Shown piece after piece: positions 16,237-16,675 of a stretch of 64,000 nt of DNA. The stretch lies in NCBI GenBank assembly GCA_031701365.1, contig GCA_031701365.1_4118.1; one strand, 5' to 3'. The translations under genes were made by a program, and so were the position numbers. Position 1 is the stretch's first letter. Every line of letters starts with the position of its first letter. The notes beneath the pieces are model-generated. The model searched no databases. It had not been told where the DNA came from and saw only the letters and a list, made by a program, of their open reading frames with translations. Origin of the DNA: Escherichia coli (GTDB taxonomy: Bacteria; Pseudomonadota; Gammaproteobacteria; Enterobacterales; Enterobacteriaceae).

Positions 16237-16264
16237 TTGACTTTATGATTCAGTACTGTATAAT
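16237..16264 (+). promoter_or_regulatory. orphan sigma70-like promoter
   Basis: TTGACT-16-TATAAT with no ORF downstream. Confidence 0.4.
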
Positions 16265-16675
16265 GTTCTACATAGGGTGATGAGTTGCTGCGAACAATTC
16301 ATTTACTCTACCTCCTGTCGTGAGACAGTACAGAAAAGATAGTTCCTCCTGTGGTGGTACATCTTTTTGAACCTCATATGAAAATTGTAATAACAGTACT
16401 GATATTAACAGAATGGTGTCAGTACTGATTTTAATCTAAAGCATTATGCCACCAGCTTGTGCTGGTGGATTCCCTCTAACAGTATTCAGTACTACATGAT
16501 GGTCTTCATCCTCCTAGGGTAACATAGTGAGGGCTATGATGGCAGTACTGAATACTCCCTTTCAAAAGATAGATCTATGGTATAGTACTGACGGATTTTG
16601 GGTGTAGTTACCCTGGATGGATTTTGGGCGTAGATATGTCTAGCCCTCCAGAAGTCTGGAAGTAAAGATGGCTAT

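Follow-up and report, generated by a model that had tools for sequence, protein, structure and literature searches.

A probable early-promoter leader and an inverted Chi pair near the physical genome end of an Asteriusvirus jumbo coliphage

In phage T7, the left end bears the host promoters A1–A3 at a distance of 500–750 bp, with a long untranslated leader after them and gene 0.3 farther on, and promoters also act at the T7 primary origin. The long terminal repeat of T5 carries pre-early genes and a large non-coding, repeat-rich injection-stop region, the terminal redundancy of SPO1 carries host-takeover genes, and the R-loop origins oriF and oriG of T4 consist of MotA-dependent middle promoters followed by an AT-rich unwinding element. 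The subject here is a locus that invites comparison with these systems, namely the leader free of open reading frames (ORFs) around positions 16237–16470 of a 64,000-nucleotide stretch of DNA (contig GCA_031701365.1_4118.1, from an assembly listed as Escherichia coli; the whole stretch is called the window). A preliminary description of this DNA had noted a promoter that no ORF follows and, farther downstream, a hairpin at which a candidate non-coding RNA might end. On balance, we lean towards the reading that the locus joins two separate elements of an end-proximal, ORF-free leader, one a leader RNA issuing from an early promoter and the other a pair of Chi octamers that works at the level of the DNA.

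Like the T7 left end, the locus has strong inward sigma70 promoters a few hundred bp in, an untranslated leader, short tandem repeats and an adjoining terminal repeat; the T7 promoters, however, lead into genes and drive DNA entry, whereas here a terminator precedes the first gene, and the repeat measures 20 kb rather than the 160 bp of T7. With T5 and SPO1 it shares a long terminal repeat, small early genes, strong host-type promoters and, at one edge, more than 1 kb of non-coding DNA dense in repeats, but the sequences are not similar, and these jumbo phages are not known to inject their DNA in two steps. As at oriF and oriG, a promoter whose untranslated transcript could prime replication is found in a phage with a T4-like replisome, yet neither a MotA-type middle promoter nor an AT-rich unwinding element was seen at this locus.

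Phage P1 has been described as carrying Chi clusters within or close to its terminal repeats, and lambdoid phage LLS as having oriented Chi sites clustered at its termini (Subramaniam & Smith, bioRxiv 10.1101/2021.07.08.451572; Genome Res 2025, PMC12315714); the role proposed for them is recombination of the terminal repeats by RecBCD and RecA (PMC12315714). In the present case, too, Chi is strongly over-represented, concentrated at the ends of linear DNA, frequent in non-coding DNA and oriented for RecBCD entering from an end. The genome differs from those of P1 and LLS in being that of a virulent jumbo myovirus of 350 kb whose 20-kb repeats are exact and not permuted, in having relatives that encode their own UvsX and gp46/47, and in carrying, 546 nt from the end, two Chi sites that are perfect inverted copies able to form a hairpin. 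RpoD-like early promoters with an UP-like element have been reported for the Rak2-like phage CBB (PMC5259590), which belongs to the same wider group and likewise concentrates host-type promoters ahead of small early ORFs, in part within its terminal repeat; unlike the locus considered here, its description (PMC5259590) includes no AGTACT palindrome, 5' hairpins or end-proximal ORF-less unit.

The physical genome end and its early promoters

The part of the window from 15600 to 17400 matches 42 phage records at 80–95% identity, of which 41 are PBECO4/121Q-like jumbo phages of the genus Asteriusvirus, listed under Escherichia or Salmonella. Judged by these matches, the source of the window is an Asteriusvirus jumbo coliphage. 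Records longer than about 366 kb contain the region twice: the ends of the WPEC3 record are a 22,503-bp duplication, 100% identical, whose inner edge corresponds to window position 15904, and five further GenBank records from different laboratories begin exactly at this position, with AGTAGGCAGAGGAAGTCTGCC, one of them with the annotation "Direct Terminal Repeats". Six GenBank records thus place the physical left end at 15904. The right boundary, ...GGGCGGGTAACCT|, is the same in vB_Ec-M-J (where the repeat is annotated), fEgEco12 and WPEC3 and corresponds to window position 36096; for fEgEco12, PhageTerm analysis backed by restriction digests established the termini (PMC13070987). From the record starts, the WPEC3 duplication and the identity of the right boundary it follows that the direct terminal repeat (DTR) is present in the window as a single, collapsed copy. 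The framework of the locus is accordingly as follows.

15904–36096, no strand: DTR, one collapsed copy of 20.2 kb, from GenBank record starts and right-boundary identity
15620–17580, no strand: ORF-free, repeat-rich leader across the terminus, from the ORF listing, conservation and the annotations of relatives
15908–15924, plus strand: hairpin GGCAGA-GGAAG-TCTGCC, beginning 5 nt from the physical left end

Within this leader, positions 16050–17400 are conserved to a degree equal to or above that of the flanking genes, with 16207–16620 at least 95% identical in 29 of 37 records, and the careful GenBank annotations of A4, G17 and EJP2 leave about 2 kb (1.7–2 kb) without genes. The 22.4-kb terminal repeat of CBB, a distantly related Pectobacterium phage, also opens with an ORF-free leader, of about 1.2 kb and similar architecture, in which AGTACT motifs, an 8-bp array and TTTTGGG and GGGTGC elements occur (KU574722, 1–53000) and in which a promoter-like site, TTGACG-17-TACTAT, lies about 305–335 nt inside the repeat. 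The corresponding 8-bp array of the window, at about 16650–16810, comprises some 20 units with the consensus ARAYGGCT, among them GGCTAAAC six times, and could represent iterons or a packaging signal. GTAATCA repeats stand on both sides of the terminus (15745, 15765, 15975 and 15985); together with the hairpin at 15908–15924, they may be recognition elements of the terminase.

The promoter and the elements immediately related to it are these.

16237–16264, plus strand: sigma70-type early promoter TTGACT-16-TATAAT, type B branch of the DTR family, from its 11/12 consensus match, family membership and invariance
16251–16258, no strand: palindrome CAGTACTG, within the spacer and directly next to the −10, from the motif count (57 copies in the window, 0.85 expected)
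15825, 15885, 16211, 16251, 16394, 16420, 16543, 16967, 17039 and 17129, no strand: examples of AGTACT, from the motif count
16150–16179, plus strand: weaker promoter-like site TTGGGA-18-TATAAT, 10/12, upstream of the main promoter

The coordinates and sequence given for the promoter in the preliminary description are right: a −35 element TTGACT (16237–16242), a 16-nt spacer and a −10 element TATAAT (16259–16264) agree with the sigma70 consensus at 11 of 12 positions. Such a match is not above chance by itself, as 15 promoter-like sites were counted in 14000–19000 against 20.2 ± 3.9 in shuffled sequence, and the case for a real promoter therefore rests on a repeated family and on invariance. 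Sites of the form TTG(A/C)(C/A)A-16/17-TATAAT on the plus strand number 34 in the 20-kb DTR, as opposed to 10, mostly weak, in the other 44 kb. Common to the DTR family are a GTTyTACAT start region, a 5' hairpin about 10 nt past the −10, a Shine-Dalgarno sequence and a small ORF, and 29 of the 34 carry the AGTACT palindrome, which either abuts the −10 (yAGTACTG-TATAAT, the type found here, in 17 DTR promoters) or overlaps the −35 (AAGTACTTGCAA). The promoter at 16237–16264 shares with its family the AGTACTG-TATAAT junction, the GTTyTACAT start region and a 5' hairpin at about +10, and over 47 nt it is 77% identical to the promoter that drives ORF 21312–21563 (repeat family D17); its hairpin is followed by no conserved ribosome-binding site or ORF. 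Invariant in 13 phages are TTGAC, CAGTACTG and TATAATG, and of the 10 bases that follow the −10 (GTTCTACATA), 9 vary little or not at all. The core is kept even in EJP2, the most distant relative, in which the flanks fall to about 50–70% identity. The promoter begins 334 nt inside the physical left end and points inwards, so the term "orphan", used for it earlier, does not suit one of 34 family promoters that is moreover the first strong one inside the genome end. From these sequence comparisons it very probably functions in transcription by the host sigma70 polymerase, with a start that, by analogy with family members, would fall at about 16270–16272. Of the weaker site upstream, GGATATAAT is present in 10 of 12 related phages aligned.

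The AGTACT motif extends well beyond this promoter. The window contains 253 copies and a related genome 919; the density is highest in the DTR, CBB has many copies as well, and the motif stays invariant in relatives whose flanking sequence has diverged. SlmA was considered as its reader and rejected: the SlmA-binding sequence GTGAGTACTCAC needs G1, T2, a purine at 3, A4 and G5 in each half-site (PMC3020112), whereas in the phage consensus nTCAGTACTGAn the third base is C and the first is not fixed as G. A literature search for the CAGTACTG motif returned primer matches only.

Three leftward promoters in the ORF-free leader (16908–16936, 17033–17060 and 17249–17276, minus strand) converge on the promoter described above; two of them score 11/12, and one has CAGTACTG abutting its TATAAT. 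At 16841–16885 lies GTTCCCCTACCGCGTGGGGATAGTTTCCCC, then AGGAG without a start codon, which looks like a decayed early-gene cassette. A faint likeness of 16841–16863 to a type I-E CRISPR repeat had no support in Rfam.

Coding potential and fold of the predicted leader RNA

The plus strand contains no ORF of at least 30 aa between 16249 and 16929. Only ORFs of 8–23 aa, unconserved and without conserved ribosome-binding sites, occur in the stretch downstream of the promoter, so the earlier statement that no ORF follows holds in the sense that there is no conserved ORF and none of at least 30 aa before 16930. Insertions and deletions among relatives measure 8, 1, 5 and 3 nt and therefore preserve no reading frame. 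A minus-strand ORF of 19 aa, read by eye behind a perfect AGGAGG, was discarded, being broken by the 8-nt insertion in WPEC3 and G17.

The plus-strand RNA of 16271–16562 is predicted to fold at −100.9 kcal/mol (z −6.18 against shuffled sequence), compared with −83.7 kcal/mol (z −3.39) for the complementary minus-strand RNA. Covariation was tested on ten distinct sequences with a structure derived from the window itself. In this alignment, 93.6% of the cells are paired, and nine pairs are changed on both sides, as against 3.7 ± 1.3 in shuffles, of which 1 in 500 reaches nine; the covariation score is 0.143, compared with 0.045–0.071 when partners are slid by 1–3 columns. Many G-U/A-U alternations form pairs only in the plus-strand RNA. 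The predicted elements, from 5' to 3', are listed below with the first canonical terminator downstream.

16273–16310, plus strand: H1, stem-loop at the 5' end of the predicted transcript, with three pairs changed on both sides
16315–16328, plus strand: H2, CUGUC-GUGA-GACAG with a GNRA loop, 100% paired, C-G replaced by A-U in Turkey5 and JNE01
16333–16368, plus strand: H3, imperfect hairpin with CCUCC (helices 4 and 5), 82–89% paired, little covariation
16394–16427, plus strand: H4, two CAGTACTG palindromes paired and then ATTTTAATCT, a weak terminator-like site, from the terminator scan and fold
16449–16468, no strand: H5, inverted Chi pair, minus-strand Chi at 16449–16456 and plus-strand Chi at 16461–16468, from exact octamers
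16481–16556, plus strand: H6, long stem-loop closed by the 13-nt inverted repeat AGTATTCAGTACT/AGTACTGAATACT, 27 pairs, 97.8% paired
17157–17183, plus strand: nearest downstream terminator of canonical intrinsic type (G-U-rich hairpin, then T7), 88–100% conserved

H1 exists in three versions (ATGAGTTG/CAATTCAT, AGGGAAC/GTTCCTT and AAATC/GATTT) and occupies the position of the 5' hairpins of the family's messenger RNAs (mRNAs). In H6, 11 pairs vary on one side only, among G-U, A-U and G-C, and one pair varies on both; the 11 would not pair in a minus-strand RNA. The T-run after H4 is interrupted in A4, Turkey5, JNE01 and EJP2. The RNA from promoter 16237–16264 is thus modelled as probably non-coding and structured, with the compensatory and G-U changes in support of a non-coding RNA, and the terminator at 17157–17183 is likely its outer limit. 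To this extent the candidate non-coding RNA of the preliminary description is supported, whereas its end at the hairpin is not.

Searches for known families were negative: Rfam 15 at gathering thresholds gave no match in the whole window, and at E ≤ 1 a single chance-level match in 14000–19000, while ARAGORN found neither a transfer RNA nor a transfer-messenger RNA. A seed scan of IMG/VR with TGTCGTGAGACANTAC recovered 121Q itself as the sole homologue and so brought no extra diversity for covariation. The motif CCUCC, which resembles an anti-Shine-Dalgarno sequence, occurs at 16311, 16345 and 16510, that is, three times in a leader RNA of 290 nt, as compared with 26 times on the plus strand of the window, and the first copy (16311) is predicted to be single-stranded, between H1 and H2.

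Chi sites at the hairpin and across the terminal repeat

The hairpin reads CCACCAGC-TTGT-GCTGGTGG, and each of its arms is an exact copy of the E. coli Chi octamer GCTGGTGG, in opposite orientations. Its sequence had been reported correctly and its place slightly too widely, as 16446–16469 rather than 16449–16468, with the true ends 3 and 1 bases farther in; the reported spacing of about 180 nt from promoter to hairpin agrees with the roughly 185 nt that separate it from the −10. With 8 bp, a high G+C content and −16.3 kcal/mol, the stem resembles that of an intrinsic terminator. Directly 3' of it stands ATTCCCTCTAAC, which contains no T-run and so no U-tract, and for this reason the hairpin is absent from the terminator scan. 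A transcript ending here, as first proposed, is not supported, in view of the missing U-tract, of conserved structure that runs on to 16556 and of the position of the first canonical terminator at 17157–17183. The G17 record labels the hairpin an ARNOLD terminator, an annotation that the present analysis corrects. Exact inverted Chi arms point instead to a role at the level of DNA. The pair lies 546 nt from the left end of the genome. Its loop (16457–16460) is TTGT or, in other phages, the reverse complement ACAA, and the two closely related phages JNE01 and Turkey5 already differ in this respect, which implies that the palindrome inverts repeatedly; template switching is the probable mechanism. 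In EJP2, CCACCAGC is retained at this position with a different hairpin partner, and an extra plus-strand Chi lies 95 nt upstream, a pattern that suggests that Chi sites turn over while selection maintains them.

The Chi pair is part of a wider enrichment. The window contains 11 Chi sites where 0.49 ± 0.70 are expected, and none of 100 shuffles reaches 11 (maximum 3); all but one fall within the DTR. No other GC-rich octamer is as frequent in the DTR, where Chi has 10 copies and the next 5, and the 168 octamers of its composition average 0.33 copies there. The 10 DTR sites do not resemble one another in their surrounding sequence and hence are not copies of a single repeat; seven of them fall between genes. 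The hosts of these phages, E. coli and Salmonella, are in keeping with a Chi function. The complete genome of ECO103 4-12-1, rotated to the terminus, has 11 Chi sites in its 21.3-kb DTR (Markov expectation 0.26) and 17 in the remaining 331 kb (expectation 2.25). WPEC3 shows the same layout, with 12 Chi sites in the DTR and one in 44 kb outside, and the terminal repeat of CBB carries nine (seven on one strand and two on the other) as against three in the next 30.5 kb. Apart from the pair at the hairpin, the DTR contains the following.

23226–23295: second inverted Chi pair, intergenic, 54 nt apart, minus strand at 23226 and plus strand at 23288, from the octamer scan
27453, 28915, 30180, 31853, 33260 and 34722 (27453–34729), plus strand: six more Chi sites, facing RecBCD that enters the right DTR end

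RecBCD reads Chi on the strand that ends 3' at its entry end (PMC12315714). By this rule the minus-strand Chi at 16449 would be the first active site for an enzyme coming from the left end, at 546 nt, and the eight plus-strand copies of the DTR face the right end, the nearest at 1.37 kb from it. At the level of sequence, then, the sites are exact octamers, oriented to the entry end and enriched beyond composition.

Other features of the DTR and its surroundings may be recorded here. Copies of a GTTAGAATGCG motif flank the second Chi pair, and the motif also occurs at 17380–17395 and 27505–27520. About a dozen small promoter-associated units with the core CCCAC-N-GGGTGC are found in intergenic spots of the DTR on both strands.

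16950–17060, 17150–17276, 19440–19526 and 21590–21698, minus strand: CCCAC-N-GGGTGC units, from the common core
19354–19440, 26060–26140, 27739–27830, 30100–30175, 32700–32780 and 34620–34700, plus strand: CCCAC-N-GGGTGC units, from the common core

The loop-proximal stems of these units covary between copies. One minus-strand unit, from 21698 to about 21590, combines a strong promoter with four hairpins and a terminator and resembles a gene for a small RNA antisense to its neighbours. Outside the repeat, the stretches 11765–15619 and 787–11661 carry, respectively, an array of about 20 tandem plus-strand ORFs of some 60 aa, whose GC skew is negative despite their orientation, and, before it, ten paralogous minus-strand genes, annotated in WPEC3 as RCC1-like ("regulator of chromosome condensation").

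Proposed function, alternatives and significance

In the explanation towards which we lean, promoter 16237–16264, the first strong one at the left end, would fire rightwards through host sigma70 and yield a non-coding, structured leader RNA with a 5' stem-loop and at least five more hairpins to about 16556. The 5' stem-loop would plausibly stabilise this RNA, as in the early mRNAs of the phage, and the 3' end might arise by weak termination after H4, in a Rho-dependent manner or, at the latest, at the terminator 17157–17183. The palindrome at 16449–16468 would be mainly a DNA element, a bidirectional Chi near the inner-left edge of the repeat: RecBCD that enters from the left end would meet the minus-strand Chi and switch from degradation to loading of RecA onto repeat DNA, and the eight plus-strand sites would do likewise for the right end. 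In this way the incoming linear DNA would be protected and the repeats would recombine with each other into circles or concatemers, with recombination-primed replication, and Chi would act ahead of any phage gene expression.

Several observations weigh against this explanation. For the RNA, the literature search found no RNA-seq or 5'-end data for any Asteriusvirus, the covariation comes from only ten distinct sequences with a structure taken from the window and with little covariation in H3 and H4, and H4, H5 and the base of H6 consist of palindromic DNA sequence, which can fold whichever strand is transcribed; template switching could, in addition, keep the arms of H5 complementary without selection on RNA. 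For Chi, the 8:2 strand bias in the DTR is not significant alone and is suggestive only, the sites being too few to prove polarity, and CBB encodes UvsX and gp46/47, so that dependence on RecBCD is not a given. A4 has lost both Chi copies while keeping a hairpin there, with C-G to U-A and G-U changes, and the CBB leader has no Chi pair, from which it follows that the hairpin structure may matter independently of Chi.

Two of the alternatives retain a function for the RNA or its synthesis. A discrete trans-acting small RNA of about 160–200 nt, ending at H4 and its T-rich tail or at the 16449–16468 hairpin, which would then be a terminator or a 3'-protective stem, might act for example via the CCUCC motifs. 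It would account for the conserved promoter and the structured RNA, for the ARNOLD label in the G17 record and for the listing of 16394–16427 followed by ATTTTAATCT as terminator-like, and three CCTCC copies within 290 nt, the first predicted to be single-stranded, against 26 in the 64-kb window fit it as well; yet that observation was made after the fact, the hairpin has no U-tract, four relatives have a broken T-run past H4, the conserved structure extends as far as 16556 and no Rfam family matches, all of which make such an RNA unlikely. We likewise think it rather improbable that the locus is an origin region in which transcription from the promoter and from the converging minus-strand promoters (16936, 17060 and 17276) primes or activates replication. 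The cumulative GC-skew minimum of a whole genome does fall 219 nt from the left terminus (maximum at 328 kb), the skew of the window turns from negative to positive at about 15.4–15.9 kb, at the DTR start, and the region is ORF-free, has promoters on both strands and contains an iteron-like 8-bp tandem array (family D2) with a homologous array in the CBB leader. The skew change coincides, however, with a change in gene blocks, 15500–17700 contains no DnaA boxes, no initiator protein is known, and the G+C content downstream of the promoter, at 0.35–0.40, is not below the 0.34 of the genome, so that the absence of an AT-rich dip leaves no obvious unwinding element. The origin-priming transcript and the decoy promoter offered as alternatives in the preliminary description are weakly supported.

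Two further alternatives deny the RNA a function. The promoter could serve, in the manner of T7, to load host RNA polymerase for DNA entry or for the start of the early programme, which its place 334 nt from the physical end, its inward direction and the promoter-like site of CBB at a similar distance (about 305–335 nt) would suit. Compensatory changes in the helices nevertheless argue for selection on the RNA itself, the terminator at 17157–17183 would stop the polymerase before any gene, and at about 50 nt/s transcription could not pull in 370 kb; a pure entry promoter is accordingly a doubtful solution of low probability. It seems very improbable that the promoter is a relic of a decayed early-gene cassette and the palindrome incidental or selfish DNA. 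Such a relic would explain why the promoter is paralogous to gene-driving promoters (family D17) and would have a companion in another cassette relic, a 5' hairpin and AGGAG without a start codon at 16856–16885 (family D6), but decay is at odds with at least 95% identity of 16207–16620 in 29 of 37 records, at or above that of neighbouring coding DNA, with the invariant promoter core and helices kept by compensatory change, and with a Chi enrichment far beyond chance.

It is tempting to speculate further, though we hold this extension to be doubtful, that the terminal repeats of about 20 kb in Rak2-like phages are dedicated landing pads, equipped with an AGTACT-reading factor and a CCUCC riboregulatory leader RNA. 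Dense, oriented Chi sites would let host RecBCD and RecA turn both incoming ends into recombination-primed replication forks and concatemers, which would explain the genome-wide GC-skew minimum at the left terminus; the AGTACT reader, with about 900 sites per genome, a site in 29 of 34 early promoters and at least 10 in the end-proximal leader, would set the timing of the early burst, and the leader RNA would act in trans as a riboregulator through its CCUCC motifs.

The DTR and the termini are already published, and the general principles are known. The fEgEco12 paper (PMC13070987) makes no mention of RecBCD, and a literature search found no report of a Chi-dense repeat, an inverted Chi pair near the end, an AGTACT promoter family or a conserved ORF-less leader RNA. 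Jumbo phages of this group are in development for therapy, and their early biology is almost unknown. The analysis locates the first promoter at the physical genome end, defines an early-promoter family and reveals a terminal repeat packed with Chi; these results provide testable handles on how a linear DNA of 370 kb survives RecBCD, joins its ends and starts its programme. The idea developed for P1 and LLS, that phages can turn Chi to their benefit, is thereby extended to a jumbo phage that is virulent and has exact repeats.

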